From Candidatus Micrarchaeota archaeon (lineage in GTDB: Archaea; Micrarchaeota; Micrarchaeia; Micrarchaeales; CABMGC01): a stretch of 36,363 nucleotides of DNA. Position 1 is the stretch's first letter; each line of letters starts with the position of its first letter. Under the pieces are notes generated by a model. That model saw only the letters and a list, made by a program, of their open reading frames with translations, made no database searches and was not told where the DNA came from. The stretch spans positions 1 through 36,363 of the forward strand of contig JAKAVL010000046.1 in the NCBI GenBank assembly GCA_021817305.1, given 5' to 3'. A program made the position numbers and the translations under genes. Of this stretch, positions 1 through 32,858 are shown piece by piece.

Positions 1-163
1 ACTCTTATAAGGGTTATCGGATCTTACGAAATTTCTTGCTGAAAGCCGTATGTAAATTCATTTCTTCAAAACATGCACTTTTGTGACTGTAAGCCAGAGA
101 AATATGCTCCCTAACTATGGCGAAGAACCCTTTTACTGTAATATAATACAGAGGCACTAAGTA

Positions 164-1384
164 TCAAAGATCCTCAGGATCAATTATCTCTAATGCCCTA
201 GACGACACCGATGTCTTATCAGGGACAAATAGCATCTTCCTTTTGGCATTTGTTGCGCCGAGAACCTGCTCTGCCCTAGTTATCTCGGCGCTGCTTATCT
301 TTTGCCCCCATTTTACCTCTATGGCAATCTCAGGCCTCTTGAACTTCATAAGCAGGCCGTCTATTTCATGGTCTTTGGACTCTGCAATGGCTTCCATGAG
401 ACCAAACTTATAGGCAAGATGCTCTCTGACGTTGTCTTCTACGAGCCTTGGCATCAATCCTGACACTATACGCAACGCCTCCGCGTCAGTCATCCTTCTC
501 TGCGATATCCCATACTTCTCATCTGCGTAGAAGAAGAGCCTCATCAGAGGGGAGGGTACTTTGTATACGAATCTGTTTTTGCCGTAGACTTCAATGCGCT
601 TAAGCAGACCTATATTCACCAGTGTAGCCAGATATGGCTGAAGCGTGCCGGGGCTGTCCTTTGGAATCAGGCCTTTGGAAAACAGTGAGCTTGATATCTC
701 TCCGGACACAACCTTGCCGTTGGCAACTGCCCTCACAATGCTCTCGTATATCTTTGACAATCCCCGCTCCTCCTCAAGAAATATCTCTCCCATGAGGGCT
801 GGGACGGCATTTACAGAACCCTTAAGTACTTCTGCACATCCCTCCTGGATATTCTTTTCTGAATCAAAATACGCCACATTTATGGGTTCCCTTAACATTA
901 TGGCTGTTTCCAGCAACTCTCTTTTGTCCAGTCTGCGATGCTGCAGTGAGGATATGCAATCATTCAGGTCTATTATGTAAATCTGCTTCTCGTGGAATAG
1001 GCCAAGCAGCGGCGATTTCTCGGAAAGCAGTTTCTTTGCCAAAAAGAGGGTAGACGTAAGCAGTATCAGCCTTCCAGACTTCTTCATGGCATGCAGATAA
1101 TCGAGGAATTTATAGTCAAGCCTGTGGAATTCGTCTATCACAACCGTCTTGCCGGATTCCAGCGCTCTTTTCATTATTTCTACAAGCGTTGCATAATCAA
1201 CCTGAACCTCCTTGCCATTGCCTGTTGATAGGATTGTCCTGTCCCTATTTACGAAGAAGTATTCATCGTAGTGTATGAACTCTTGTATCAGGAAGCTTTT
1301 ACCTGTCTTGCGACGCCCAAATACCAGTGTCCATTTCGCTACATTCTTGAGCTCCTTCTCTTCAAGAGGCCTATGTATAATCAT
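164..1384 (-). CDS. Archaeal AAA-type ATPase with C-terminal PD-(D/E)xK nuclease-like domain (ATPase_2/DUF234 type)
   Basis: Walker A GRRKTGKS, Walker B VVIDEFH, wHTH-like middle, C-terminal EIDGL...IAIEVKW. Start moved to MIIHRP (ATG at 1384) because the ORF-track extension overlaps the upstream gene. Confidence 0.85.
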   Translation of the reverse strand: MIIHRPLEEKELKNVAKWTLVFGRRKTGKSFLIQEFIHYDEYFFVNRDRTILSTGNGKEVQVDYATLVEIMKRALESGKTVVIDEFHRLDYKFLDYLHAMKKSGRLILLTSTLFLAKKLLSEKSPLLGLFHEKQIYIIDLNDCISSLQHRRLDKRELLETAIMLREPINVAYFDSEKNIQEGCAEVLKGSVNAVPALMGEIFLEEERGLSKIYESIVRAVANGKVVSGEISSSLFSKGLIPKDSPGTLQPYLATLVNIGLLKRIEVYGKNRFVYKVPSPLMRLFFYADEKYGISQRRMTDAEALRIVSGLMPRLVEDNVREHLAYKFGLMEAIAESKDHEIDGLLMKFKRPEIAIEVKWGQKISSAEITRAEQVLGATNAKRKMLFVPDKTSVSSRALEIIDPEDL

Positions 1385-1466
1385 GAATATTATAACTACA
1401 ATTATACTTAAATGCCTTTTGGTCGCTGAAGGCACTTCCAGGATTCTTGCTTGAAGGACTTGTACT

Positions 1467-4070
1467 CTACGGCGGGCTCCCGAAGCCGAGTGCCTGCCAC
1501 TCGTTCTCCACGCCGCCAGGTGAGCCAGGAGCGAGATAGTTTCCGGAAAAGTACGGGTAGAGGACGTTTGTCGGTATGCCGTTATTGCCGTAGCTGCCGG
1601 AGTCGTTTGCGTTGCCGTTGAGAGGCCACCATCCCACGACATTGCCCGCGAGTGATGCGATCGGGGCGCCACTTATTCCGGCATTGTAAAGGCTGCTAAC
1701 CTGCGGGCCTGTAAGAGCAACATTGTAAAGTTGCACGTCTGCCATAGTCCCATTGAAGAAGCCTGTAATCCATGACTTGCTGCCTATCTTCATGAACGTG
1801 GGAACCTGCGGAGTTACGGCAGACTGAGAGCTGTCCAGCTTTCCGTTCAGGTACATGTTTACATCGACCCCGTTGTACGCAACTGTGATGTATGTCCAAG
1901 TGTTCAATGGGACTGTTCCTGTGCTGACCTTGTCGTTGCTTGCTGATGGCCACCACCATAGCACGCCGGTTGATTTTATGCCGAGGACATATCCCGAGGA
2001 GCCACCGTTCTCGTTGCTCTCCAGCAGGGTGCCCCCGATGCCGCCGCCGAAGGATGATTGCATTATGTTAGCGGGGTGCACCCACGCGCTTATGGTGAGC
2101 GGAGACGTAGGCAAATGACTTGTTCCGGTGCTTATATTGCTGCTCTGGCCGTTGAACGAGCCTACTTGGGACAGGCTTCCCGGCTCGAACGGTAAATTAC
2201 TGAGAAAAAGGTTCGGCAGGGAGTTGCTGCTGCATGTTGACATGCTTGTGCAGGATTGTATCCCGGGCATCGGATATGTTTGGCCCGTGTAATTCTGCAT
2301 GAGGCTGTCGCGCAGGTAGTTGCCCGTAGATGATACATAGATCACGTTCGACGGCGTACCGGTGTTCCCCTGACCGCTGTAATCATTTGGATTGCCGTTC
2401 AGTGGCCACCAGCCGACCAGGCCGTTGTTAGGCATCGGAAGGCCCTCTATGCCGCGCGCGTACAGCTGCGCTACTTGATTGGCTGTGAGTGACGTGTTAT
2501 ATACCTGAATGCCGCTGATCTGGCCGTTGAACCAAAGATTGCAGGCTGTGCTGCCCGCTCCGGAGCATTGCGCACCTATCTGGTTGTCTTTGCCTGATGC
2601 AGAGAAGGTCGAGCTGGCAGGCCCAAGGACCTTTGCCCCGTCAACGTAGAGCGTAACATCAAGTCCGTTCCACGTTGCGATGACATTATGCCATGCGCCG
2701 TCGTCTATTACCTTGGATGAAGCGAGTGTGCCTCCGCTGTTCGCCCATATGGCCGCTACCCCGGTAGTCGCGCTGTCAAAGACTTGGTAACCGTATGTAC
2801 CGTCCCATGTGGAGAATATCATCCCATCTGGATGTGTGGTTCGTATCCACGCGCTTACTGTGGCTTTGCTGTTAGTTATCCCGTCCAGCAGGTTTGAATT
2901 CGGTATACTTTCAAGGCTGTTGGCTCCGTTGAAGCCTGCTGCCTGTCTATTATATCCCTGGAACGTTGACACGCCCGCGACAGACGCATTGAATGAGTCA
3001 TTTACCCTGGAAAGGTACGATGGAAGGAAGGGAGAGGCGATGTAGTAGCCGTTCGATATTGCCTGCCTCAGGTTCTCTATGTTGAGAGTAGAAAGCTGCG
3101 GGCCATAGAGCAGCACGCTCTGCCCTGAAACGAAGTAGTTTGAGAGTATTACGTTTTGTGAGTATACGAGGTATGGCACCGTGGGGCTTATCGAGGTAAT
3201 GCTGTTTGTTATGAAACCCATGAAGCTGTTCTCGCAACCGGATAATGAACCGATGTTCGGCATTACGAGGATTATGTTTGACTCGGTGCTCGCCGTGAGA
3301 GACGGGCAGGATGTACCGGAGGAGTAGTATACCGTGCCGTAAGCGTACGTGAGGGAGTTTCCGCTGCTTGCGAACGTTCCTGCCACTAGACTGGTAAGAT
3401 TGGAGGGATTCACAAAATGCATGTAGCGCAGTATGCCCTGCTGGTCGTAGAACAGATCAGGGGTGTTGTTTATCGGAACTGAGAAGCTGATAGGCAGCGA
3501 ATACAGCGACGCCAAACCCCCTGTGCTGATGTTTACGTTCTCGGTGTAGCTCACGTTTATGGAATAGGGGCTCTGCTGCGTTATCCTGAGGCCGTTCTCG
3601 GTTACGGATTGCAGGCCTGCGCCAGAGTAGTTGGATACGAGGAGAGCATTGTACGCCGTGAAGGTAAGGTTGTACATGGATCTTTTCAGGTAGTTTGCGG
3701 CTACGCTGCCTGCCGCCACGTTCGGGAGCATTGCGTTGGTCATTAGGTATTGCAGGTACTGTGCCGTGTTCTGTATCAGGTTGCCCTTTCTCAGCGATGC
3801 GTTGTATTCGTAATACGCAAGCGTCGCGAGCGCGCCTTTCAGGCTGGCGCTGCCGGATTGCGGCGCGTCCTGGCGCAGGGATGCGATAAGGCTGACTGAT
3901 GACTTGGACTGGAAGGTACTCTGCGCTATGTTGCTGTACTGGATGCCTATCACCACGAAGGAGAACAACTCGGCAAGTATCAGTATCAGCGCAAGAAGCA
4001 CGGTAAGGCTCATTAGCTGCGCTCTTGATGACCCTCCGGGTAGCCTTTTCAGAGCTGTATTCATTTCCAT
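1467..4070 (-). CDS. Pilin-like (class III signal peptide) surface protein with two LamG/concanavalin-like domains
   Basis: N-terminal RAQ followed by a hydrophobic helix (LMSLTVLLALILILAELF). Two FNG..S ... W..I..T.NG ... Y..G ... FNG.(I/M)...Q.YN..L modules. Ser/Asn/Thr-rich with many NxS/T sequons. Confidence 0.8.
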   Translation of the reverse strand: MEMNTALKRLPGGSSRAQLMSLTVLLALILILAELFSFVVIGIQYSNIAQSTFQSKSSVSLIASLRQDAPQSGSASLKGALATLAYYEYNASLRKGNLIQNTAQYLQYLMTNAMLPNVAAGSVAANYLKRSMYNLTFTAYNALLVSNYSGAGLQSVTENGLRITQQSPYSINVSYTENVNISTGGLASLYSLPISFSVPINNTPDLFYDQQGILRYMHFVNPSNLTSLVAGTFASSGNSLTYAYGTVYYSSGTSCPSLTASTESNIILVMPNIGSLSGCENSFMGFITNSITSISPTVPYLVYSQNVILSNYFVSGQSVLLYGPQLSTLNIENLRQAISNGYYIASPFLPSYLSRVNDSFNASVAGVSTFQGYNRQAAGFNGANSLESIPNSNLLDGITNSKATVSAWIRTTHPDGMIFSTWDGTYGYQVFDSATTGVAAIWANSGGTLASSKVIDDGAWHNVIATWNGLDVTLYVDGAKVLGPASSTFSASGKDNQIGAQCSGAGSTACNLWFNGQISGIQVYNTSLTANQVAQLYARGIEGLPMPNNGLVGWWPLNGNPNDYSGQGNTGTPSNVIYVSSTGNYLRDSLMQNYTGQTYPMPGIQSCTSMSTCSSNSLPNLFLSNLPFEPGSLSQVGSFNGQSSNISTGTSHLPTSPLTISAWVHPANIMQSSFGGGIGGTLLESNENGGSSGYVLGIKSTGVLWWWPSASNDKVSTGTVPLNTWTYITVAYNGVDVNMYLNGKLDSSQSAVTPQVPTFMKIGSKSWITGFFNGTMADVQLYNVALTGPQVSSLYNAGISGAPIASLAGNVVGWWPLNGNANDSGSYGNNGIPTNVLYPYFSGNYLAPGSPGGVENEWQALGFGSPP
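2139..2159. repeat. Exact 21-nt direct repeat (copy 1; copy 2 at 4799-4819) at LamG module start
   Basis: gctgctctggccgttgaacga is present at both positions and encodes SFNGQSS on the minus strand. Confidence 0.9.
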
Positions 4071-6202
4071 GAGTAAACACCTACCTTGTATAACTTTGGA
4101 ACGTTCGTGTACAGGGAGTTTGCGCCGTTGAATCCCGCATATTTATTGAATGGCACAAGAGTTGACGACACTGATATGCTTGACGCGCCGGAGTACCCTG
4201 CAGGCAGGTAATTGCCCTGGACATAGGTTACACCAAAGGGGTATCCAGTGTTGTTGTACCCCGAGTAGTCGTTCGCGTCGCCCTCGAGAGGCCACCAGCC
4301 CACTATGTTTGCGGAAGCTACAGGTGCGCCGGAGATGCCTTCGTCGTAGAGCTGCCGGACCTGGGTTGAATTGAGCGCTGTATTGTAAAATTGCACGTTT
4401 GTGATTAAACCATTCCATGGAAACTGGAGGACTAGGCTACCGGTTCCCCCGCCTATTACTGAAGGATTCGACGCAGGCAGTACAATATTTTGCGAGGGTA
4501 TGCTCATGGAATTTGAGTTGGAATTTAGATAAAGAATAAGGTTACCATTGGAGTAGGTGTATCCCAAGAAATGCCATTCGTCTGAAGATAATGCGAGCGA
4601 GGTAGTATAGGAAGTCACACCATTCCAGAAATCAAGATCAGAACCGCCAGTATACAGTCCCGCCATCTCGCTCGTACCTCCATTAGTTCCATAGCTGAAT
4701 ATGTCCATATGCGCGTTTGGAGTTGGAGTATAGGCCCACATAAAAACCGAGCTTGGATTATTGCCAAGGGGCAATCCTGTAGTTCCTGTACTTACATAGC
4801 TGCTCTGGCCGTTGAACGAAGAGACGTACAGGGAAGGCGCATATGAGCCGTTTATGAACAGGCCGGTGTTGCTCTTTGGATACGCCTTGTCTACCAAATA
4901 TGTTGCGCAGCTTCCCCTGCCTTCCAGGTATAGCTGAACTATGTTCTGCAGCAGCGATGAATACGGCTGCGAGGAGCATGGGCCATAGGCTATGAAGTTT
5001 CCGCCGGCTGCCACGTAAAGGTCGCCGTATGCTGCGGAGAACTGGCTTACTGCACCGTATGTGCTTGGAACCTGAGTGCTCCATTGTACTGCACCAGTAG
5101 TTGCATTCTGGTTTATGACGTAGTTGCCGGACCAGACGCTGTACACCGAGCTGTTGGTTAGTAGGGGGTACTGGAGCGGCGTGCCGTATGAGGATAGCGA
5201 TTTACCCCAGAGAAGGGCTCCGGAACCTGAGAACGCTGTCACTCCGCTTTCATTCTCATATACCGCCAGGCTCCTGTTCGCCGCGACTCCTGTGACTGTG
5301 CTGCCGTCGTTATCGCAGAACTTCTGTGTAAGGTTCAGATAGAAACTGCATGCAAAGACGGTATTGCCAACGTAGAGCATTCCACCGGAGGCGGCGATGT
5401 TGGTTGTTGCGAACGCGTAAGATGACGTGAGAACATTGCCTCCTGCCTGATCCAGAAGCACGACGTTGTTGGATGTGAGCCACACTAGCACAGAGCCATT
5501 CTCCTCAAGCACCTCGTTGATGTTGGTGCCGAGGTTGTTGTTGAGCATAAGGGTGCCGTTGTTTGCATTGGATACCATAAGGTTCGTGCTTCTTGCGCCG
5601 GTCGATAGTATCGAGTACAGCTCGCCCCCGTATGCAAGCGCCTGCGATGACGCCGTAGAGCTCGACCACATGCTTGTGCCGTTGCCCGCGTTGAGCGCTC
5701 CCGTGTTCGATGATGTGCCGTATATGAGCGCGCCGTTGTAGAGCGCGAGGCCGTATACGCTGCTTGCGAGCGTATTAGACCATGAAAGCGAGCCGTAGCT
5801 CGCGTTCAGCGCGTAGAGGGTGTTGCCTGCGCCGAAGTAGACGTTGCCGTAGCCCGCAACTATGGGAGTCGATATTGCGGCGCTTGCAGAAAAGACGTAC
5901 TGGATTGTCGGAAGTATCGGGCCATGGGCCTCGTACGCGGAGCGCGAAGGGCCGCCCATGAACTGCGTCCAGAACTCTGAGGATGAGTTGTACCCGTTCA
6001 GGATGGAGAGAGCAGCCTGATCCGTAGCGGAGAGCAGCGCAGGGGATTCTGATGAGAACACACTGAGTGCTTGGCTTATTGTGGACGAGCCTGCGGTGTA
6101 CGGCACCTGTATTGCGTAGTTGAAGTATGCGAGTATGGACACGGCGACTCCGACTATTACAAGAGCGAATATAGCGTCGGTAGTGAAGACCATGCCCTTC
6201 AA
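4061..6202 (-). CDS. Pilin-like surface protein with PQQ-type beta-propeller repeats and one LamG domain
   Basis: Probable TTG start after GGTG gives MKG-MVFTTDAIFALVIVG (class III-like). Repeats such as LYALNASYGSLSW, ALNAGNGTSMW and NATTGAVQW. LamG at ~4225-4820. Overlaps the next gene by 10 nt. Confidence 0.78.
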   Translation of the reverse strand: MKGMVFTTDAIFALVIVGVAVSILAYFNYAIQVPYTAGSSTISQALSVFSSESPALLSATDQAALSILNGYNSSSEFWTQFMGGPSRSAYEAHGPILPTIQYVFSASAAISTPIVAGYGNVYFGAGNTLYALNASYGSLSWSNTLASSVYGLALYNGALIYGTSSNTGALNAGNGTSMWSSSTASSQALAYGGELYSILSTGARSTNLMVSNANNGTLMLNNNLGTNINEVLEENGSVLVWLTSNNVVLLDQAGGNVLTSSYAFATTNIAASGGMLYVGNTVFACSFYLNLTQKFCDNDGSTVTGVAANRSLAVYENESGVTAFSGSGALLWGKSLSSYGTPLQYPLLTNSSVYSVWSGNYVINQNATTGAVQWSTQVPSTYGAVSQFSAAYGDLYVAAGGNFIAYGPCSSQPYSSLLQNIVQLYLEGRGSCATYLVDKAYPKSNTGLFINGSYAPSLYVSSFNGQSSYVSTGTTGLPLGNNPSSVFMWAYTPTPNAHMDIFSYGTNGGTSEMAGLYTGGSDLDFWNGVTSYTTSLALSSDEWHFLGYTYSNGNLILYLNSNSNSMSIPSQNIVLPASNPSVIGGGTGSLVLQFPWNGLITNVQFYNTALNSTQVRQLYDEGISGAPVASANIVGWWPLEGDANDYSGYNNTGYPFGVTYVQGNYLPAGYSGASSISVSSTLVPFNKYAGFNGANSLYTNVPKLYKVGVYSWK
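4799..4819. repeat. Exact 21-nt direct repeat (copy 2)
   Basis: Identical to 2139-2159. Confidence 0.9.
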
Positions 6203-6341
6203 GAGATGCACCGTTGTTAAGACGACGTTTATATCTTTATATATTACTGAGACGGCTTTGCAGCGTCTCGCGCGCATTTCTTATACGCGATGCGCAGGAA
6301 AATATGAAATAATTTAAATAACTAATGGCAACAAATCAAGC

Positions 6342-7977: not shown

Positions 7978-9579
7978 TCAGCCGGCAAACCTGGACGCAT
8001 AGACTAGAAGCGCGTCAAGAACAGGGCCTATCACAGGAAGCCTTGCGCCGGCCATGCGCATTATTCCTATGTCTTTTTGCCCGATGGCGCGTGTCTTGGC
8101 TGCCAGCGCAGGGTACACTGCAAAGTAAAGTGCAGCGCCTATTATGAGAGCGATTATCGGCTGCAGCCCGGAGAGGGCCAATGCGCAGAGCATTAGGCCA
8201 GGAACGATATTCGACAGTATTATCAGAAGTATTTTGCGCGCTTCGAATCTCGCGCCGTGGCCGGAGATGTAGTTGAGGTATAACGCGCTCGGAAGCAGGT
8301 TTCCGATGTAGAATATGGCTATTATGGTACCTATGACCCCGAAGTACAATGTCATCGGGATCATGGACGCCAGGGTGACTATGCCGGTGAATACGGCGTA
8401 TTTCAGCACCTTCCGGGGCTTGCCCACGCCTATCATGTAGTTTGTGCCGTAGGTGAAGAATATGGATACGAAAAGGCTCAGGGTTATGAGCTGCATGTAC
8501 ACCGTTGCACCCAGATACGTGCTCGAAAAGAGGAGCAGTATTAAGTCATGGGAGAACACCGTTATGAACACGACGAGCGGCGTTGCGAACAACAGGCTCA
8601 GGTATATCGAGTAATGAAACAACTTACCGGCCTGCGTGCTCGGGTCCTTCATGCGCTGCGCCTCAGAGAACATGGGTATCATGGAGAGGGCTATGGAGCC
8701 AACAAGTATGTCAAGTGCGTTTAGGACCTTCTGTGAGATTCCGTAATCGCCTACTGTTGACGGAAGCACGAAGAATCCGAGGTACACTGTCGAAATGTTC
8801 GATAGGATTCCGGATATGAAGCCGGATATGGTAAGGTACTTGGAGAAGCCTATCGCTTCCCGGAACCTGCGCAGCATGCCATTTGCGGTGAACCTCAATG
8901 GATAAATGCGGTGCAGCAGATAGAACTCGACTGTCGATGCCAGGAGAAGGCCTGCCGAGAAGCCCGCAAGTGCACCCGTTATCCCGTAGCCCAGCAGCAC
9001 CAGAGTTATGCTTACTATAGCCTGGGCCGAGGAGTGGACCACCGCTGCCGTCGCTGCGCCTGAGCCGCTGCCGACGCTTATCAGCGCGTCGTTGAGAGTC
9101 GAGTAGACTATGCCAAGCAAAATGCTGAGGAACCCGACCATTAGCGCGAGGCCGTAAGACCCCGTATGCAGGAAATAGCTGGATATCACGTTGCCGAGGG
9201 CAAGCGCCACAAGGAGCAGTATGACGCCTATGCCAATGGACAAAAACAGTGCGTCGCCCAGCGCGGTTCCGGCGTCGTGCGCCCTCCTTTCCGGGCGTAT
9301 CCTCGGTATCTTCTCCTTGAGATAATTGCCGATGTTCGGATTGCCGAGAGCACCGATTATGCCAGCTGCGCTCATTATGAGTATGTATATGCCGTAGTCG
9401 TGCGGCTGCAGGAGCCTCGCGACTATTACGAACATGGCTGTGCTTATGACTATCCCTACGAACCTGCCTGACATCAGGAAAGATGCCGTCTTTGCAGTAC
9501 GAACGCCGAGCGCCTCCGTGGCGTTACCGGATGCGGGGCCTTTATCATTCCTGTGCACATGCCTAGGCATTTGAGCCAC
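7978..9579 (-). CDS. MOP-family (Wzx-like) oligosaccharide flippase
   Basis: ~14 hydrophobic segments, ARLLQPHDYGIY, VGDYGISQK. Confidence 0.85.
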   Translation of the reverse strand: MAQMPRHVHRNDKGPASGNATEALGVRTAKTASFLMSGRFVGIVISTAMFVIVARLLQPHDYGIYILIMSAAGIIGALGNPNIGNYLKEKIPRIRPERRAHDAGTALGDALFLSIGIGVILLLVALALGNVISSYFLHTGSYGLALMVGFLSILLGIVYSTLNDALISVGSGSGAATAAVVHSSAQAIVSITLVLLGYGITGALAGFSAGLLLASTVEFYLLHRIYPLRFTANGMLRRFREAIGFSKYLTISGFISGILSNISTVYLGFFVLPSTVGDYGISQKVLNALDILVGSIALSMIPMFSEAQRMKDPSTQAGKLFHYSIYLSLLFATPLVVFITVFSHDLILLLFSSTYLGATVYMQLITLSLFVSIFFTYGTNYMIGVGKPRKVLKYAVFTGIVTLASMIPMTLYFGVIGTIIAIFYIGNLLPSALYLNYISGHGARFEARKILLIILSNIVPGLMLCALALSGLQPIIALIIGAALYFAVYPALAAKTRAIGQKDIGIMRMAGARLPVIGPVLDALLVYASRFAG

Positions 9580-11149
9580 CTCTAGAGCCCATGAACAGGA
9601 GGGTATATCTGCGCAGCAGGCGCACCGCGGATCCGGCGTACCTTATGCCGGATGTCGAGGCTGCAAGCCTGTCCAGGTCGCTTCTCTCGACAAGGTGCAT
9701 TATGCCGATTATCGCGGGATACGCGAGCAGCATTATGGTGAAGCCTGCAACGAGCTCAAGCAGATGGCCGGGCAGCAGGAGAGCGGCGTATATCGGTATT
9801 GCGAGTATGAGGTTTGCAAGGAGAACCATCGACATGCGCCCGTAGCTCAGCTTGGCCTTAAGATCGCGCATGGATAGCCGTATGAAAAGAAGGTTTGAAG
9901 CTATGCTGCCTATGATGAAGACGGAAAGTATGACGCCGATAGTGTTAAGGTATGGGATGAGCACCGCCATGGAGGCGAGCTGTATGGACACCGACAGAAG
10001 GCTGTAATAAAGGTACTTTCTGGTCGCGCCCTCCGAGGTGATCAAGCTGCCGAGAAAAACGCCTATCATGCTTATCGCTGTCCCAAATGCTATGAGCGTG
10101 AGGTAAAGCGGCGCATAGGAGTACTTGCTGGATAGGAGTATGCCAAGGCCGGGGCTGGCCATGACCCCAATGTAGATTATGAGGGGCATCGAAAACAGCA
10201 GGGAGTACAGGATTATCTTGTTGAATGACGAGTTCCTTGCCGCACGGCTCTTGCGGCCGTGGCCGGCCCTTGAGAACACCGGCACAAGAAACGAGGAGGA
10301 GGTTGTGAATAGAGTTGTCGTGAGAGCAAGGCCCTTCAGCGCGGCGCTGTAGTTTCCCAGAATCGTTGCGCTCGCGAAGGCACCCAGAATTAGCACGGAG
10401 AGGTTCTGCGTTGCAAGCTTTGACAGGTTTATCAGTCCCAGGGGCACCGAGAAGCTGAAGGCATGCATGAACTCGCTGCGGGAGGGCATGCGCAGCGAGA
10501 AGCCCCTGTATCCTGAAGCTATACGCAGCGCATAGGATACGGCTGTTGCTGCGCCTATGACATACCCGAGGAGCATGCCGAGAAGGGCGCCGTCGACGCC
10601 GAGCCCGAGGTGCAGGAATGCGAGTATGGCCGCAAGCTGTATCAGGTCTATGACTAGGGTGATCACCGCAGCGGACGTCGGCCTTGAAAGGCCTATCAGG
10701 GCCATTATCGACGAGTTCTGCAGCATCATGAAGAATATCCACAGCGACGCCAGAATGAGCGACAGGGATGACACGCCGACGTTTCCGAAGAGGACGTTTG
10801 CCACAAGTCCGCTTAACCCTACGCCGGCGAGGGTGATCACCAGCGCTGCAGGAACCAGCAATGCGTATCCCGAGGACATGGTGCGCGATATTCCTTTTGC
10901 ATTGTTGCTGCTGGAGAACCTTGAGAGGTTCCTGCTGAGATATGCCCCGACACCGAAGTTCTGCATCCCGCCTACTATGGCAGCGAAGCTTACTGCGAAC
11001 ACGTAGAATCCGTAGCTGCTTGGACCCAAGGACCTTGTAAGCACCACGAAGGTTAGGACGCTAACGATTATGGCAAAGACCTGGCCGAAGTAAAGGATGT
11101 AGGCCATCCTCGCAGCAGATGATGAAAGGCTCTCCTTCTTTGTTGCCAT
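9563..11149 (-). CDS. MOP-family (Wzx-like) oligosaccharide flippase, paralog
   Basis: TRSLGPSSYGFY, LGNYSAA, multi-TM. Start set at MATKKES. Overlaps the downstream flippase. Confidence 0.85.
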   Translation of the reverse strand: MATKKESLSSSAARMAYILYFGQVFAIIVSVLTFVVLTRSLGPSSYGFYVFAVSFAAIVGGMQNFGVGAYLSRNLSRFSSSNNAKGISRTMSSGYALLVPAALVITLAGVGLSGLVANVLFGNVGVSSLSLILASLWIFFMMLQNSSIMALIGLSRPTSAAVITLVIDLIQLAAILAFLHLGLGVDGALLGMLLGYVIGAATAVSYALRIASGYRGFSLRMPSRSEFMHAFSFSVPLGLINLSKLATQNLSVLILGAFASATILGNYSAALKGLALTTTLFTTSSSFLVPVFSRAGHGRKSRAARNSSFNKIILYSLLFSMPLIIYIGVMASPGLGILLSSKYSYAPLYLTLIAFGTAISMIGVFLGSLITSEGATRKYLYYSLLSVSIQLASMAVLIPYLNTIGVILSVFIIGSIASNLLFIRLSMRDLKAKLSYGRMSMVLLANLILAIPIYAALLLPGHLLELVAGFTIMLLAYPAIIGIMHLVERSDLDRLAASTSGIRYAGSAVRLLRRYTLLFMGSRGGSNA

Positions 11150-11233
11150 TGCAAGACCGGGACTTCTACTATGCTTTTTATTTGTTTGTATGGGAAAGTA
11201 TAAAAGCAGCCATTCCGGCGCAATGAGGTTTTC

Positions 11234-13558
11234 ATGAAGTCTTATTTTGCATTGCAGGCAGTACTCAAGGGAAGGCTTGCGGAACATGCACTCGCATTAG
11301 CAATTTATCTCGTCATTGCGCTGGCCATGTTCTGGAACCTTGCTGGAAATGCGGCGGGATCGCTCCCTAACAGCGCAGGATCCTCGTACCAGAGCGCGTG
11401 GGGCCTGTGGTGGGTCAACTATGCCACGTTCGTGCTCCACCAGAATCCCTACTTCACAAGCTATATCCTTTACCCCATAGGCGCGAACCTGAATGCGCAG
11501 GCGCTTGCCCCGATAGCAGCGTTCCTTACCTGGCCTTTGCAGCAGATAGGCGTCGCCTTCGCATACAACGTCCTCCTCTTCTTGGGATTCGCACTCTCCG
11601 GGCTTTTCATGTACATGCTTGCAAAATACATTACAGGAAACAGGTACGCCGCGTTCATTGCCGGGCTCATCTTCGCGTTCGCCCCTGCGCACATAGCGCA
11701 GTCGTATACAGGCCTGCAGTGGACAAGCGTAGAGTTCATGCCCCTTTTCGTGCTCCTTATGCTTATGACTATACGGGAGACGAGGCACAGGTATTTTTAT
11801 GCCGTGCTTTCTGGAGCCAGTTTCTTCATGGTAACGTTCTTCGGGGACATTCAGCAGGGGGCGATGATGCTTTTCTTCGCGATCCTGGCACTTGCCATTC
11901 TTCTCTTCGCCGAAAGGAGGCTCTTCGACAGGAATACTGTGTATGCGCTGGCCATCATGACTGCGGTAGCTGCACTCATGTGTGCGCCACTCCTTGCGCT
12001 GATGGCAACTGCGCCGGGGCAGGGCGGAGTGCAGCAGGCGCAGCTCAGCAGCATACCGCGCGGCATGCTATTCAGCGACACGCTCGCGTCGTTCTTCCTA
12101 CCCAGCTACTACAACGGCATTCTGGGCGGGTCTGCGGCGTACTACAATAGCACCTATGGACTGAATTATACTGGGATCCCCACACTATCGGCTGCAAGCA
12201 GGAAGGTGGCGTATCTAGGTTATACTGCCATGGCGCTTGCCGCCGTAGGCATAGCCTTCTCGTTTAAGAGGGAGCGCAAGCAGCTTGCGCTCTGGTCTGC
12301 AGTGCTGGTTGTGTTCGCATTGCTCGCGCTCGGACCGGTGCTGCAGATTACCGGCGCGGTCAGCGGTTCCCATGGCCCGGTGTACATAGGCATGAACGTT
12401 TCCAACGGCAACGTATCCGGCATGCCGATGCCATACCTGCTTTACAGCTATGTCCCCGTGATAAACTCGGTGACCCAGCCGGGGGCATTCGACATCGTGG
12501 CGGAGATGGCCCTCGCAATGCTGGCCGCGATCGGAGTTGGTCACCTGATAAAGACGGAGGCCATAGGCGGCAAGGGCCTTGCCTTTGCCGTGGCCCTTTC
12601 ACTGCTTATACTTATAGAATACAACGGCATGCCTCTGTCTGGGACGTCTGCGGCTCGGCTGACATCCAGCGCAGCGGTGCCTGCGGGGTTCGCTGCCCTG
12701 GGCAACTTCAGCGGCAATTACTCAGTTCTGTCATTGCCCGCACTGCCTGCGCAGAACGGGAGCTTCGGGTATCCGGGCACTGCCATGCTATACTCTACGG
12801 CATCAAAGAAGCCCCTGGTCGGAGGCTACTCCGCAATCATGAACGCATCGCAGCAGACAGCCCTAGAGACTATTCCGCTTGTAGTTCAGACCACGTACCT
12901 GCAGGGAAGGCAGGGATTCCTTTACCCGTACCCGATAAACGAGAACTACAGCAACCTCACGCTCCTGCTGCTTGACGAGTATGGCACTGGCATAGTTTCC
13001 ATGCAGAACGGCGCGTTTTCGCCAAACGACTCCGCGAGCCTGAGGAACTATCTGGAGAGCATTTTCGGAGCGCCGTGGTACTCCGATAACGGCACGACAA
13101 TGTTTCAGACAGGCGGCGCCATAAGCAGGCACATCGCTGTCGGGCTTGACGCGTACACTGTGGGGACATGGACGCCCGGGTACATATTCTGTGCGCAGCA
13201 GTGCAACTCCCAGTTCGCAACGATGTGGTGGGGCGGAAATCCGCGCGGCGTATACGTTTACTCGTACAGGAATGGCAGCATTGCGATGGGTACCGATGCG
13301 CTGTCGTACTATGGAACTGCCAATGTTGCAGTAATAGACAATGGCAGGCTTGCGGGCTTTATCAACGCGACCAACAACACAATTGCAAGGCAGAGGTTCA
13401 GCGTTACGCTGAACGTCACGCGGGGCCTCAACCAAGTGATACTGTACGAGCCCAACTCTACCATTGGACAGCAGAATCCGAATTACGCGCAATACCCGTA
13501 CTTCAACTTCGGGATTTACAACATGACAGTTACGTACGCGAACGACACGACGACATGA
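11234..13558 (+). CDS. Polytopic GT-C/YfhO-like membrane protein with extracellular C-terminal domain
   Basis: YQSAWGLWW, AGLIFAFAPAH, SFFLPSYY, YLGY, LALGP, LVGGY. C-terminus is sequon-rich. Confidence 0.7.
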   Translation: MKSYFALQAVLKGRLAEHALALAIYLVIALAMFWNLAGNAAGSLPNSAGSSYQSAWGLWWVNYATFVLHQNPYFTSYILYPIGANLNAQALAPIAAFLTWPLQQIGVAFAYNVLLFLGFALSGLFMYMLAKYITGNRYAAFIAGLIFAFAPAHIAQSYTGLQWTSVEFMPLFVLLMLMTIRETRHRYFYAVLSGASFFMVTFFGDIQQGAMMLFFAILALAILLFAERRLFDRNTVYALAIMTAVAALMCAPLLALMATAPGQGGVQQAQLSSIPRGMLFSDTLASFFLPSYYNGILGGSAAYYNSTYGLNYTGIPTLSAASRKVAYLGYTAMALAAVGIAFSFKRERKQLALWSAVLVVFALLALGPVLQITGAVSGSHGPVYIGMNVSNGNVSGMPMPYLLYSYVPVINSVTQPGAFDIVAEMALAMLAAIGVGHLIKTEAIGGKGLAFAVALSLLILIEYNGMPLSGTSAARLTSSAAVPAGFAALGNFSGNYSVLSLPALPAQNGSFGYPGTAMLYSTASKKPLVGGYSAIMNASQQTALETIPLVVQTTYLQGRQGFLYPYPINENYSNLTLLLLDEYGTGIVSMQNGAFSPNDSASLRNYLESIFGAPWYSDNGTTMFQTGGAISRHIAVGLDAYTVGTWTPGYIFCAQQCNSQFATMWWGGNPRGVYVYSYRNGSIAMGTDALSYYGTANVAVIDNGRLAGFINATNNTIARQRFSVTLNVTRGLNQVILYEPNSTIGQQNPNYAQYPYFNFGIYNMTVTYANDTTT

Positions 13559-13782: not shown

Positions 13783-15204
13783 AATTTAATACCAGGAGAA
13801 TTCCCCCAACCTCGTTGGGGGTTGTCTGGTATCTAATACTAAAGTCCTATCCCTAATATAAACGTATATATTTTATCTACCTATCAAGCTCGTGGAACTT
13901 ACCGCGAAGATAGAGATATTTCCCACGCCCGCACAAAAAGATACGCTATGGAAACTGTCGGAACGCTGCAGGCTGCTGTACAACTTCGCACTGAAGGAAC
14001 GGATGGACGCGTTCAAGGACAACGTCAAGATAGGCTACCTAGAACAGCAAAACGATCTTCCGCGAATAAAGAAGAGGTATCCGCAATACGCATGGGTCCA
14101 TTCAAAGGTGCTACAGGGCACACTCCGGCACCTCGATACGGCATACGGATCGTACAACGCGCTGAAAAAGAACGGAGACAAGGCGGCGAGGCCGCCGAGA
14201 TACAAGGGAAGGGGCGAGTTCGCCACAATGACCTACAACCAGTCGGGATTCAAAATAAGGGACAGCAGGATAACACTTTCGCAGTTCTGCAACAACACTG
14301 CGCTTGCATTCGAGATACCGAAAAAGTACGTATTCGATAAGGTGCTTGAGGTGTCAATGTCGTCAAGGCACGGCAGGTACTTCCTGTCGGTAGTATATCA
14401 ATTCAGGGAGAAGGAGTACGTGGACAACGGCAGGTACATTGCGATAGATTTGGGGGTGAGCAACATAATCACATCGGTAAATACCGAGGCAAAGTCCCTG
14501 CAGGTCAGGAACAAGAGGCCGGATACCTACTGGGAGAAAAGGATCGAGAGCATACAGGCAAGGAAATCACACTGCAGAAAGGGAAGCAGGAAGTACAAAA
14601 ACTCCACAAGCACGAACTTTGGATGAGGAACAAGTCTGCAAACCAGATAAGGGACTTTCAGCACAAGGTATCCGATAAACTCGTAAGGAACACAAAGGCG
14701 AATACCATAATAATCGGAGACCTCTCACCGAAACAGATGGTCATGAAGGATTATGCTTCGAAATATGCCAAGGGCCTGCACAGGTCGCTCCAGAACACAG
14801 GCACGATTGGCAGATTCGCCGGTTTCCTCAAATACAAGGCAAAGAAGATGGGGAAGAAGGTTGAGGAGATAAGCGAAAAGGACACGACAAAGATGTGCTC
14901 TGCATGCGGAAAGATGCACGGCATGAAACTGTCGGACAGGATTATGGAGTGTGATTGTGGAAACCATATCGACAGGGACATAAACTCTGCGATAAACATA
15001 ATGAACGGGTTCCTATCACAGAATGCCCTAGTGGCGGGGCTGAGCGCATTTGCGCTCAAACTGCGACAAACAGGCCTGCTGAATGACAATGACGGCAGTG
15101 CGCTCGCGGAAGTACCTTATGCGGGCGGGGATACCGCCGGCTTCGCCGGCGGAGAGGACCCGCCCGTGCGTGGGGTTTATAAGGGGCGAAGCCCCTTATG
15201 TCAT
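13783..15204 (+). mobile_element. tnpB-only (IS1341-like) IS200/IS605-family element
   Basis: TCAT at 13779-13782, left-end hairpin cccccaac-ctc-gttggggg (13803-13821), tnpB, right-end hairpin 15134-15152 and terminal TCAT 15201-15204. No tnpA seen. Confidence 0.8.
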
Positions 15205-15324
15205 TACATAGACTTGCAGCAACAGCGTATCGCGCTTTGTAGAAAAGGCTTAAATACTCTATTGCAGCAGAAGGTATCAGGGAAGACCAAACGATGGGGG
15301 ATAGAATGGAAACAAATGAGTTAG
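13892..15324 (+). pseudogene. tnpB: TnpB RNA-guided endonuclease, split into 13892-14626 and 14623-15324
   Basis: CRLLYNFAL, YNQSGF, RuvC-I IAIDLG, IIIGDL, TTKMCSACG..CDCG, DRDINSAINI. One extra A in the A5 run at 14597-14601 would fuse the frames (KYKKLHKHELWMRNK). Confidence 0.88.
15020..15220 (+). ncRNA. omega-RNA (reRNA) of TnpB; scaffold ends at 15204, guide from 15205
   Basis: Hairpins at 15041-15058, 15076-15098, 15114-15176 and 15179-15199. Loop atgaca (15083-15088) is complementary to terminal tgtcat (15199-15204), giving a pseudoknot. 5' boundary approximate. Confidence 0.75.
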
Positions 15325-18731: not shown

Positions 18732-18807
18732 CACAGAGGATGCGAATACATCCCGCATAGCCTTTATATGTTTTCCATTCAATAAATAGCTTAGTTTCGG
18801 TGCAGTG

Positions 18808-21096
18808 ATGGATTTTCAGCCGGGCCCTGGCGCAGAGGATTTGAATAGGGAGGGATTCCTAAGGTCAAACAAAGCAAATCTCATTGTGCTCCTCGCATAT
18901 CTCTTTATAGCGCTCATAATTTTCTGGCCCATGACGGCCAACATCGCCGGAACTGTCGCGGGCACCGGAGGGGATCCGTACCAGAGCATGTGGAACCTGT
19001 GGTGGGTCCCTTACTCTTTATTCACATTGCACCAGAGCTTCTGGACGACAAACATGGTCTTCTGGCCCGTAGGCGCGAACCTGATATATCAGACGCTCAT
19101 GCCGCTGGGCGCAATTCTTGTATCTCCGTTCCAGTCCGTGAGCCCGATGCTCGCATACAACATGCTGTTCTTCATTGGGATAGTGATCTCGGGATTCGGC
19201 ATGTACGTGCTTTCCGATTACATAGTAAGGAACAGGTACGCAGCGTTCATCGCAGGGATCATATTCGCGTTCAGCGCTTTCCACATCGCCCAGGCGTATG
19301 GCCACCTAGATTATGCGAATATCGGTTTCGTGCCCCTGTCGATATACATGCTCCTGCGCGCCATAAACAGGGATTACATCAGGGTGAGGTACGGAAAATA
19401 CGCGACTGCGGCAGCCCTCTCATTGCTCTTTGTCCTGTGCATCTCAATTGGCGAGCTTGAGCAGGGTTTGATACTTGTCATGGCCATGGTGTTGATAACC
19501 CTGGGTTATGCCGTAAGCAGAAGCCAGAGGGCCAAGGTGCTCAACGCGGAGTTCGCTTCCCTGGCTGTCGTGTTCATAGTAGTCACTTTCGTGCTTGGGT
19601 CCTGGATGTTCATACCTGTAATCAACGGGCTTTCTACGTCGACAGTAAACCAGCTGAATGACGTATACCACAATGCCATCTGGAGCGACGACATAGTATC
19701 GTTCTTCCTGCCCAGCTATTACAACGGCGTATTCAACGGTGCTGCGCAGTCGTACATCAGTATATACCACCAGGATGCAGGGGAGACTACTTCCTACATA
19801 GGCTACGTGGCGCTTGCGCTATGCGCATACGGGGTATACCGTGCAGGCAGGCAGACCTATCTGTGGATTGCCCTAGGAGTCATATTCTTCCTTCTGGCGC
19901 TCGGCCCGTACCTCCTGATCAACAACAACGTGACCGGCGTGCCTGGGCCGTACATGATAATAAAGGCCATACCGATACTGAATGTGATCAGGGAGCCGGG
20001 GCGCTTCGACCTCATAGTCTCGGTTGCGGTCGCAATCCTCGCAGCGTTCGGGGCCAAGGCGCTCTTCGAGAGGATGCAGGGCAGCATGGGCGCGATCAAC
20101 GGCAGGAAGCTGCTCGGTGCGGCAGCAGTCATTTCCATTCTCATACTGCTGGAGACCGCTGCCCCTCCGCTTTCCGGGTCGCTTGCTGCGAACATCACCA
20201 CCACCCCGAATGTGTCGTCGCTGTACAAGTACCTTGGCAATGAAAGCGCCAGTTTCTCTGTACTGCAGCTGCCCATACTTCCTGACCAGTACAGCACGCA
20301 GCCAGGCCTTTACCCTGGAGAGGCGATGTTCTCCACCATATACACGCACAAGCCCGTGCTTGGCGGCTACCTGACAAGGGAGAATGTAACGCAGGAGTCC
20401 ACGCTGTACAACATACCAATGGTGATAGACACCTTTGACATGGAGATCGGCCTCGCGCCAGGATATTTCTCCGTGATAAACCAGAGCTACGTGAACCAGA
20501 CGCTGCTCGCCCTTTACCTCTACAATGCAACAGTAGTCACCTTGGACAAAAGCGCGTACAACGGCACGACGCTGCCTGCGGTGGCGCGGTACATGGAGGG
20601 CATCTTCGGCGCGCCCCCGTACAGTTTTTCCAATGATTCGATAGTCGGATGGAGCACGGTGAACGCCGTAAGCAGCGCCGCATTCAAGAGCTATGTTGCA
20701 TTCCCAAGCGTGTCCGAGTGGAATGCGAGCAGGTACAGAATCAACGGCACCAACGTCACTCTGTGGAAGCCCGCGGGGGATGGACTGGTACTGGCATATG
20801 CGCCTTACCTCAACGGCAATTACAACTCTGCATCGTACTCGGTCAATACCATAATAACCGTTTCAGCTGTTTCTTTGGGAGGGGCATCACAGCTCGGGAT
20901 AGGAAGGATCACGAACTCCGGAATAACAAGGATAGCGCTTCTCAACATCAGTGGCGGCATTAGGGATTACAGCTTTGCAGCAAGCCTTTCGCCAGGGGAT
21001 TATGGCAACGGCCTTGTATTCCAGCTCGGCGGGAATGGGCAGCAGAGCTCTGCGGCCGGGATAACTGGGATAAGATTCTCCCTGGGCACCAACTAA
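18808..21096 (+). CDS. Polytopic GT-C/YfhO-like membrane protein (paralog of 11234-13558)
   Basis: GGDPYQSMWNLWW, AGIIFAFSAFH, SFFLPSYYNG, IREPGRF, VLGGY. Confidence 0.72.
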   Translation: MDFQPGPGAEDLNREGFLRSNKANLIVLLAYLFIALIIFWPMTANIAGTVAGTGGDPYQSMWNLWWVPYSLFTLHQSFWTTNMVFWPVGANLIYQTLMPLGAILVSPFQSVSPMLAYNMLFFIGIVISGFGMYVLSDYIVRNRYAAFIAGIIFAFSAFHIAQAYGHLDYANIGFVPLSIYMLLRAINRDYIRVRYGKYATAAALSLLFVLCISIGELEQGLILVMAMVLITLGYAVSRSQRAKVLNAEFASLAVVFIVVTFVLGSWMFIPVINGLSTSTVNQLNDVYHNAIWSDDIVSFFLPSYYNGVFNGAAQSYISIYHQDAGETTSYIGYVALALCAYGVYRAGRQTYLWIALGVIFFLLALGPYLLINNNVTGVPGPYMIIKAIPILNVIREPGRFDLIVSVAVAILAAFGAKALFERMQGSMGAINGRKLLGAAAVISILILLETAAPPLSGSLAANITTTPNVSSLYKYLGNESASFSVLQLPILPDQYSTQPGLYPGEAMFSTIYTHKPVLGGYLTRENVTQESTLYNIPMVIDTFDMEIGLAPGYFSVINQSYVNQTLLALYLYNATVVTLDKSAYNGTTLPAVARYMEGIFGAPPYSFSNDSIVGWSTVNAVSSAAFKSYVAFPSVSEWNASRYRINGTNVTLWKPAGDGLVLAYAPYLNGNYNSASYSVNTIITVSAVSLGGASQLGIGRITNSGITRIALLNISGGIRDYSFAASLSPGDYGNGLVFQLGGNGQQSSAAGITGIRFSLGTN

Positions 21097-32052: not shown

Positions 32053-32339
32053 GTTGAGTCAAATCCTCAAGCGCCCATATTGGTTAAACAAAAAAGTATT
32101 TAAAGCATCTTGCAGCGGAAGGCGCGCTGGATATACATTTGCATACTTGCCGTATTTACGGCGTCAGTATTGTGACCTCTTATAAGGAAGGCGGCTTGCG
32201 ATTATTCGCTTCCGCATAGACGGGCCCTCCTGCTCACGGCGTCTGAAGCGCTTCTTGGATGATTTCGGAGCGGCACACCGGGCCGCGGGCCTGGGGGAAC
32301 TACAAGAAGGGTTATAAGCAATGGAGTTGCAAAGTGTTC

Positions 32340-32858
32340 ATGGAACTGCAGGTCCCGACGGACTTCATGTCAACCTATGCGTGGATATTCATAGCGGTGT
32401 CCATAATAGCCATGGTCGGCGTTGGGGCCGCCCTGTCCTGGCCCTCTGCGCCCGCAATGGAGCATTCGTGCAGCATCGTATCCGGGTTCGCATGCATGTC
32501 TGCGGCGCTTGGCAGCTATCCAGGAGGGAGCGCGCTTTTCCTGAGGATAACGAACAGGCAGGGCGCGTATGTCTACATGCCAGGCAATTCTGTGATCGTG
32601 CATCCGTACCTGAATGATACGTCATACAATGGCAGCTGCGTGCCTGAGACCGTGGCGAACGGGGGAAGTCTCCTCTGCGTGGCGTACATGAACGGCTACG
32701 AGCCTGGCTACGGCGCGTCTGTCGGACCTGGATTCTCAATAGTCTTCGGGATATGCGGCGGAAAGTGCAGCAGCGCGGATTTGGGATACCAGGTGTCAGG
32801 CACGACATACATAACAGCTGGGGAAAGCATGCAGCAGGCCGCAAATGCGACAGCATAG
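32340..32858 (+). CDS. Pilin-like protein with degenerate class III signal peptide
   Basis: MELQVPTDFMSTYAWIFI resembles the (K/R)xQxxxEFLxTYGW pilin N-terminus. Six Cys, including CSIVSGFAC. Confidence 0.6.
   Translation: MELQVPTDFMSTYAWIFIAVSIIAMVGVGAALSWPSAPAMEHSCSIVSGFACMSAALGSYPGGSALFLRITNRQGAYVYMPGNSVIVHPYLNDTSYNGSCVPETVANGGSLLCVAYMNGYEPGYGASVGPGFSIVFGICGGKCSSADLGYQVSGTTYITAGESMQQAANATA

Follow-up and report, generated by a model that had tools for sequence, protein, structure and literature searches.

In bacteria, pilins that carry an additional globular module have been well described, and the available part of that literature places the Laminin_G_3 family (PF13385) among the commonest of these modules (PMC8179133). 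PilC of Streptococcus sanguinis, for example, is presented in the available portion of its report as a pilin with a ConA-like lectin module, which belongs to the PilABC tip complex (PMC9934059). In the archaea, an expansion of LamG-like (jelly-roll) proteins was described in “Ca. Mancarchaeum acidiphilum” Mia14, some of them linked to type IV pili loci, and the sections available from that account propose a role in the interaction with the host (Golyshina et al. 2017, PMC5498576). The present analysis deals with two overlapping genes of a Candidatus Micrarchaeota archaeon, called here gene A and gene B, which are found in a stretch of 36,363 nucleotides (contig JAKAVL010000046.1 of assembly GCA_021817305.1), hereafter the window, which is an entire 36-kb contig of a source genome of 840 kb in 57 contigs, with an estimated completeness of 81%.

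Genes A and B probably encode translationally coupled, very large pilin-like proteins of the type IV pilus system of the Micrarchaeota, involved in the display of adhesion modules, and by analogy they most likely correspond, among the archaea, to modular pilins of bacteria such as the PilC of S. sanguinis. In common with PilC and the modular pilins, as far as the available texts portray them, both proteins have a class III leader and a hydrophobic helix, followed by bulky modules of the ConA/LamG superfamily, and the genes are found among pilus genes, with several pilin-like subunits per operon. Unlike the bacterial modular pilins, genes A and B are archaeal, match neither the bacterial N-methylation motif nor a curated pilin model, and encode much larger, multi-module proteins, in which no canonical small pilin head was recognised. 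The Tat-fimbrial protein TafC (NF052521) is matched by the LamG part alone, at 44.9 and 35.2 bits against a cut-off of 410.

Mia14 represents the same phylum and the same idea of a link between LamG and pili, and in the available text of its account no domain architecture, leader motifs, conserved gene pair, or analysis of strand order was found (PMC5498576). The link between LamG and pili in the Micrarchaeota was thus already published, and the new results here concern the architecture of the proteins, the motifs of their leaders, the conserved arrangement of a small pilin gene and the two large genes, and the strand order of the LamG modules.

The overlapping gene pair

Gene A (4061..6202, minus strand) encodes 713 amino acids (aa) from a TTG start, and gene B (1467..4070, minus strand) encodes 867 aa, with the ATG of gene B lying inside the end of gene A, so that the two genes overlap by 10 nt. 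An earlier note on this DNA, made from the sequence alone, had reported an overlapping pair, which is real. The longest open reading frame (ORF) of gene A runs from 4061 to 6277, and the TTG at 6200-6202, from which the protein starts as MKGMVFTTDA (P0024), is the start adopted both by the public gene calls and by 17 of the 17 aligned relatives. The homologs of gene A are referred to below as the P2 family (alignment A1, n = 17) and those of gene B as the P1 family (alignment A3, n = 69), and the AlphaFold2 (AF2) models, built from these family alignments, have a pLDDT of 78.6 and 83.3, respectively.

Those homologs of the two genes that bear organism names are assigned to Candidatus Micrarchaeota, which, together with the 840-kb genome, bears out the DPANN part of the claim in the earlier note that the DNA came from a DPANN symbiont. 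In proteins A and B, the residues K, R, D, and E account for ~1-2% each and S for ~14%, with 13-14 N-x-S/T sequons, a composition that would fit extracellular proteins of an acidophile-like type. DNA nearly identical to the window is also present in sequencing runs labelled as mine drainage metagenome.

Pilin-like N-termini and the pilus machinery

The cleavage of class III leaders follows a rule of [KR][GA] placed before a hydrophobic helix, and both N-termini have a basic residue and a G or A straight before such a helix (KG/MVFTTDA in gene A and RAQ/LMSL in gene B), with these motifs kept in the respective families. In gene A, the leader MKG and the hydrophobic helix occupy residues 1-29 (6116..6202, minus strand), the family starting with M-K-G followed by a hydrophobic F-T-x-D-A-x-F-A helix, in which F6, T7, D9, and F12 are invariant in the A1 alignment, and the model has a helix at residues 8-29. 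In gene B, the leader and one long N-terminal helix of 75 residues (residues 15-89 in the model) correspond to 3804..4070 (minus strand), with the family consensus K-A/G-Q-L-M-S/T followed by a leucine-rich helix. A short leader ending in [KR][GA] and followed by a hydrophobic helix, as expected of archaeal type IV pilins, is thus found in both proteins, and the class III-like, pilin-type N-termini recognised in the earlier note are borne out by the conserved motifs and the two model helices.

The motif [KR][GAS]-hydrophobic-F[TS] was found in 76 of the 79 P2-like ORFs, and the leader motif is also present in 38 of 39 ORFs of a small pilin that, in many relatives, is encoded just upstream of P2. 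This small pilin has 175-190 aa and the N-terminus MKAQ/FWSFDVIFA, and the comparison of gene A with its N-terminus by hhalign reached a probability of 92% over 50 columns.

The machinery that such proteins would require is present in the source genome, which has an A24 prepilin peptidase (28.2 bits against a cut-off of 26.5) and three T2SSE (PilB-like) ATPase genes. The small pilin of this genome is encoded on another contig, C41, in convergent orientation to two T2SSF genes, and a T2SSE gene lies 5 kb away. The peptidase and the ATPase and platform genes are therefore present and linked, with the linkage to the pair being found in relatives and not in the window.

Further ORFs with class III-like N-termini were observed in the source genome. 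In the window, a 199-aa ORF of low charge at 32259-32858 (plus strand) has a class III-like N-terminus (…Q/VPTDFMSTYAWIF…) and no match in Pfam or NCBIfam, and may be another pilin-like protein. On contig C37 (162-2825; locus L005), an 887-aa class III LamG protein starts with MKAQ/IALEF, and on contig C17 (350-1333; locus L006), a 327-aa class III LamG protein with the N-terminus Q/SATEFLITYGW has a single LamG core and its trailing segment, which makes it the smallest form of pilin plus LamG seen.

Synteny in the Micrarchaeota

The link to a pilus system, also suggested in the earlier note, is supported by the type IV pilus genes found beside the pair in relatives, in a sample of 80 Micrarchaeota loci, where the denominators are the loci with room to judge. 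A P2-like gene is followed directly by a P1-like gene, usually with an overlap of 8-10 nt, in 67 of 68 loci, the sole exception having a split P2. A small pilin gene lies just upstream of the pair in 36 of 78 loci, a T2SSF (PilC-like) gene no more than 1.5 kb downstream in 41 of 57, and a T2SSE ATPase gene anywhere in the locus in 45 of 57.

The synteny with pilus genes was confirmed by Pfam in two loci, L018 and L084, the latter from the complete genome of Ca. Micrarchaeum sp. A_DKE. Here, the order is a class III protein with three or four LamG modules, the small pilin, P2, and P1, which converge on two T2SSF genes, a gene of ~200 aa, and a T2SSE gene.

A number of observations weigh against the assignment of the pair to a pilus. 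In the source genome and a close relative (L008), the pair adjoins pyrG rather than pilus genes, with no T2SSF or T2SSE gene in the window, and a further locus (L007) has no pilus gene beside the pair; it is the pair that was displaced to its place beside pyrG, and the small pilin of the source genome stayed on C41. The leader was found by a strict regular expression in only 39 of 73 P1-like ORFs, part of which may be accounted for by the calling of ORF starts. The usual pilin alpha-1 helix has ~50 residues, a length exceeded by the N-terminal helix of gene B. Finally, the curated pilin and class III models of Pfam and NCBIfam, which are short and lineage-specific, gave no match up to E = 1 to the two N-termini or to the small pilin, and the assignment as pilins rests on motif, helix, and context.

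These same leaders and the synteny with ATPase, platform, and small pilin-like genes would also be expected if the class III signals and the pilus-like machinery served only for export and anchoring, with the proteins forming a bindosome-like layer at the cell surface, whose modules would trap, at the envelope, glycans or other molecules. The sugar-binding proteins of Sulfolobus have a bindosome-like arrangement, the 713-867 aa of the two proteins are a very large size for filament subunits, and further class III LamG proteins are encoded on C37 and C17 of the source genome. Even so, the size is no obstacle, given that bulky modular pilins are found at the tips of bacterial pili; the dedicated 180-aa pilin of the operon suggests a real filament, and thin filaments are reported, in the parts of the literature available, on cells of the Micrarchaeota type. 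A surface layer of this kind is regarded as unlikely, and the interpretation of the pair as pilus subunits is preferred.

Domain composition of the two proteins

Following its leader, gene A has an eight-bladed beta-propeller (residues ~96-410; 4973..5917, minus strand), recognised by Pfam PQQ_2 (PF13360; 53.2 bits against a cut-off of 27.6, E 4e-14) and formed by 32 strands in the model. Foldseek matched this propeller to BamB (E 3e-18), and VIA-align, run against all the representatives of the Protein Data Bank (PDB) clusters, gave Z 28-32 over model residues 74-412, so that both profile and fold place it among the BamB/PQQ-like eight-bladed propellers. It is not a BamB equivalog, as the NCBIfam model scored 30.9 bits against a cut-off of 285. 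The propeller is followed by a LamG/pentraxin-fold domain, including a trailing VGWWPL motif (residues 457-662; 4217..4834, minus strand), which was recognised both by Laminin_G_3 (51.2 bits, E 2e-13, residues 489-640; cut-off 27.6) and by VIA-align.

The C-terminal tail of gene A, of ~40-49 aa (residues 665-713, ending in LYKVGVYSWK; 4064..4210, minus strand), is conserved across the family and is covered neither by the alignments to propellers, which stop at ~410, nor by those to pentraxins, which stop at 662-672 (P0024 numbering). The earlier note had pointed to the resumption of non-LamG sequence after the module of gene A, and a conserved tail of ~45 aa is indeed found there. A hidden Markov model (HMM) of the tail matches P2-like proteins both with and without a propeller. 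The tail was also considered as a shortened extra LamG core, and this was dropped, the hhalign probability being 2-4% against module 1 of gene B. In close relatives only, ~9 residues around GFNGANS are common to the tail of gene A (4100-4130) and the start of the first core of gene B (2920-2950), which may be a trace of recombination between neighbouring genes; the profile comparison was non-significant.

In gene B, the N-terminal helix is followed by an alpha/beta domain (residues 90-370; 2961..3803, minus strand), which is conserved in 69 homologs and has no Pfam match. Its structural neighbours in the Atlas are archaeal hypothetical proteins with TM of 0.55-0.65, a lead only, and the match lists of the whole models in Foldseek and VIA-align were filled by the propeller or LamG, which means that this domain and the tail of gene A were hardly probed by them. 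Two LamG modules follow, the first at residues 375-588 (2307..2948, minus strand; Laminin_G_3 and Laminin_G_2, HMM core at 377-542 and trailing segment at 549-588), and the second at residues 630-853 (1512..2183, minus strand), recognised through its alignment by VIA-align to whole pentraxins and by the Pentaxin profile. The linker between them (2184..2306, minus strand) has the invariant cysteines C607 and C613, and the protein finishes with a conserved C-terminal end of the NEWQALGFG type (1470..1511, minus strand). Laminin_G_3 matches gene B in two stretches with 129 bits (cut-off 27.6, E 2.1e-37), one of which, at residues 640-792, spans profile positions 1-151, i.e., the entire profile. 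Beyond the 3' end of gene B, an AAA_14 ATPase gene (164-1672, minus strand) has a longest ORF that shares ~200 nt with the end of gene B, and, as its first ~95 residues are non-coding in appearance, its true start is probably near 1384.

Strand order of the LamG modules

The three modules, one in gene A and two in gene B, have a pairwise identity of 32-36% over 225-244 columns, and share the motifs FNG, VQ.YN, QV..LY..GI.G.P, and VGWWPL.G.AND...N.G.P..V.Y..GNYL. In gene B, the VGWWPL motif starts from residues 552 and 812, and in gene A it is placed at 659, in each case 7-9 residues past the core. The presence of three modules with these motifs and a trailing VGWWPL, as described in the earlier note, was confirmed by mutual alignment and by Pfam, and is far beyond chance. 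Both genes score above the gathering threshold of the Laminin_G_3/ConA-like lectin-glucanase family (PF13385).

The models of both genes have a two-sheet jelly-roll fold, with Z 16-23 against laminin G (LG), LNS, pentraxin, and LamG_3 chains (150-196 aligned residues, rmsd 2.0-2.9). Module 2 of gene B (residues 630-853) aligns in order with residues 1..217 of the SAP-like pentraxin 3flp_A (Z 20.8, 192 aligned), and model residues 634..851 with 6..204 of the 204 residues of human SAP (1gyk_A; Z 19.6, 182 aligned). The same module reached Z 21.8 against PTX3, Z 23.0 against PAPP-A (8hgg_C), Z 22.7 against 4dqa, and Z 15-17 against the LG/LNS domains of laminin and neurexin, while tandem LG chains align to the gene B model from residue 375. 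In gene A, model residues 457..662 align with residues 175..381 of PTX3 (7zl1_B; Z 20.1, 186 aligned), and 458..672 with PAPP-A (8hgg_C; Z 19.9).

In the predicted models, the core and the trailing segment together follow whole pentraxin and LG domains in sequence order, and the W-rich segment behind each core therefore represents the two C-terminal strands that this fold normally has. The Pfam Pentaxin profile also passes through VGWWPL, with positions 143-187 of 194 at residues 771-822 of gene B, and reaches position 188 of 194 in the paralog on C37. The fold and strand order are alike in this case, and membership of the pentraxin family (PF00354) is not claimed, given that gene B scored 20.7 bits, below the cut-off of 25. 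The pentraxins and the laminin-G/LNS domains (3flp, 1gyk, 7zl1, 1qu0, 2r16; Z 16-22) thus have the same fold, the same strand order, and two C-terminal strands after the helix, and, unlike these domains, the modules of genes A and B have a long Asn/Gly-rich loop between the two strands. As a caveat, the strand order was deduced from which residues, and how many of them, are covered by ordered alignments to AF2 models, rather than from coordinates.

The opposite phase is represented by 5hon/5ho0 (domain 4 of AbnA) and 4qvs, which, of the solved structures, are the closest to the core in sequence (E ~5e-17) and have the same sandwich fold (Z 16.3). Unlike the modules of genes A and B, this type has ~47 residues before the core and nothing after the helix. 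The bacterial LamG_3-type chain 5hon_B, whose core starts at residue 49 of 209, aligns to model residues 634..796 only, leaving over its own ~47 N-terminal residues. The W strands in front of the core are the arrangement of the 5hon type, and the Pfam boundaries of LamG_3 are drawn around that core. A search of the PDB sequences with module 2 (phmmer) gave no match at E <= 0.01, and a profile of 61 W segments gave none at E <= 10, so that the equivalence of the N-terminal residues of 5hon and 4qvs to the W motif found no support from sequence. The statement of the earlier note that this segment normally begins the pentraxin and LamG-3 domains holds, therefore, for the bacterial LamG_3 type, and fails for the pentraxins and laminin G, where the equivalent strands are C-terminal.

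A scan with HMMs of the core (C) and of the W-rich segment (W), which favours the same interpretation as the models, covered 190 related proteins with 491 cores, among which the commonest architectures were CWCW (69 proteins) and CW (24). The gap from C to W is tight (median 7, quartiles 6-7, n = 355), and that from W to the next C is loose (median 20, quartiles 14-50, n = 255). W was detected only after the core in 292 cases, on both sides in 60, only before it in 31, and not at all in 108. Both phases exist, even within the source genome, where the protein on C37 has the order W-C-W-C-W-C. As a separate observation, the seemingly bare-core ends of the arrays in P0097, P0098, and P0102 carry a short strand similar to VP.GW.P, and in array proteins such as P0097 the first C-terminal strand is kept even behind the last core.

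Modularity and the question of an inserted cassette

The earlier note had also regarded the proteins as modular, and this part stands, as the number of LamG modules varies and a second LamG can replace the propeller. The P1-like proteins have from one to three or more LamG modules each, and in the P2-like proteins the N-terminal ~70 residues and a tail of ~40 residues (LY.VGVYSW type) are constant and the middle is variable. This middle consists of the propeller and CW in 45 ORFs, of two LamG without propeller in 11, and of a single CW in one form of 383 aa.

The earlier note further proposed a circular permutation of the LamG domains, which would bring the two termini of each together and allow the domains to be plugged as cassettes into loops of a pilin-like scaffold. 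When compared with the bacterial LamG_3 type, as represented by 5hon_B, the order does differ by a permutation; the source genome encodes a W-C-W-C-W-C protein, and the constant N-terminus and tail of the gene A family surround a variable middle. The models of both genes, however, have the canonical strand order, with whole pentraxin and LG chains aligned in order, which was named in advance as the outcome that refutes a permutation. As the core and W are collinear with complete domains, no new topology is required, and the termini of the LG and pentraxin domains are adjacent in any case. The permutation part of this proposal is thus, on the modelled folds, largely refuted, and a literature search on circular permutation involving pentraxin and laminin G returned only an unrelated paper.

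For the insertion into a loop, no support was found either. The modules of gene B are simply C-terminal, nothing shows an insertion in gene A, and, since the trailing W strand is a normal one, no special insertion mechanism is needed. The small pilin and gene A can be aligned over the N-terminal 50 residues only, and no homolog without LamG was found among the complete P1-like and P2-like proteins, every one of which has at least one module. Some P1-like entries of 335-460 aa were considered as LamG-free scaffolds and were rejected as fragments, which end in the middle of the conserved region or in frameshifted sequence. Taken as a whole, a permuted cassette plugged into a scaffold is very improbable, and the strand order corrects a tempting misreading of the W-rich segment.

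The least probable explanation, that of secreted enzymes with a catalytic propeller and LamG as carbohydrate-binding module, can draw on the eight-bladed tetrathionate hydrolase of an acidophile (6l8a, Z 30.6) among the top structural neighbours and on the glycosidases and sialidases that LamG-fold modules accompany in the PDB match list, and is nonetheless considered extremely improbable. Propellers without enzymatic function score as well as 6l8a does (Z 28-32, 15-20% identity), some members of the P2 family do without a propeller, gene B has no candidate catalytic domain, and the synteny is with pilus genes.

Other genes of the window

The window also contains genes for the archaeal FttA, SecY, ribonucleotide reductase, and CTP synthase. 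Two paralogous proteins of ~770 aa and low charge (11234-13558 and 18805-21096, both on the plus strand) have similar N-terminal membrane regions and no Pfam family, and the Polysacc_synt flippase-type genes at 7978-9579 and 9563-11287 adjoin them, in what may be a surface glycosylation cluster. An IS605-family TnpB-like gene at 13892-15324 (plus strand) is split into an HTH_OrfB_IS605 part (244 aa) and a Cas12f1-like TNB domain (233 aa).

A possible mechanism of display and its implications

According to the preferred interpretation, that of pilus subunits, each protein would be made with a short class III leader, the A24 prepilin peptidase would remove this leader by cleavage behind [KR][GA], and the freed hydrophobic N-terminal helix would then dock into the core of the pilus. 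Both proteins would most plausibly be minor or tip subunits, because their C-terminal parts are too bulky for the shaft. In this position, gene A would display the eight-bladed beta-propeller and one LamG/pentraxin-fold domain, and gene B the alpha/beta domain and two LamG/pentraxin-fold domains, and the target of these modules would be a surface ligand of either the host or a biofilm matrix, perhaps a glycan. The probable role of the proteins on the pilus would be to keep hold of a host cell.

A more speculative extension, which is considered quite unlikely, is that gene A represents a split pilin scaffold, in which the constant N-terminus of ~70 residues and a conserved C-terminal beta-hairpin tail meet, with swappable adhesion modules (propeller, one or two LamG) between them. 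Gene A, gene B, and the 180-aa pilin would in that case make up a conserved tip complex of three parts, by which the host specificity of the Micrarchaeota would be set. The minor pseudopilins of the GspK type, in which a domain is inserted in the pilin sheet according to the available part of their description (PMC8179133), offer a possible model for such an interrupted scaffold, to which the N-terminus and tail of gene A, being constant in the family, might point. Unlike GspK, gene A has nothing to show that the tail completes a pilin sheet, and no match of its sequence or fold to GspK was seen.

The recognition of hosts and the attachment to them by DPANN archaea are largely unexplained, and this gene pair supplies concrete candidates for the adhesins involved. 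The pair is conserved across the Micrarchaeota, usually inside a type IV pilus cluster, and is also present in a cultivated strain, A_DKE (L084). If the scaffold of gene A were indeed split, the pair would represent a cassette-exchange system for the recognition between symbiont and host.

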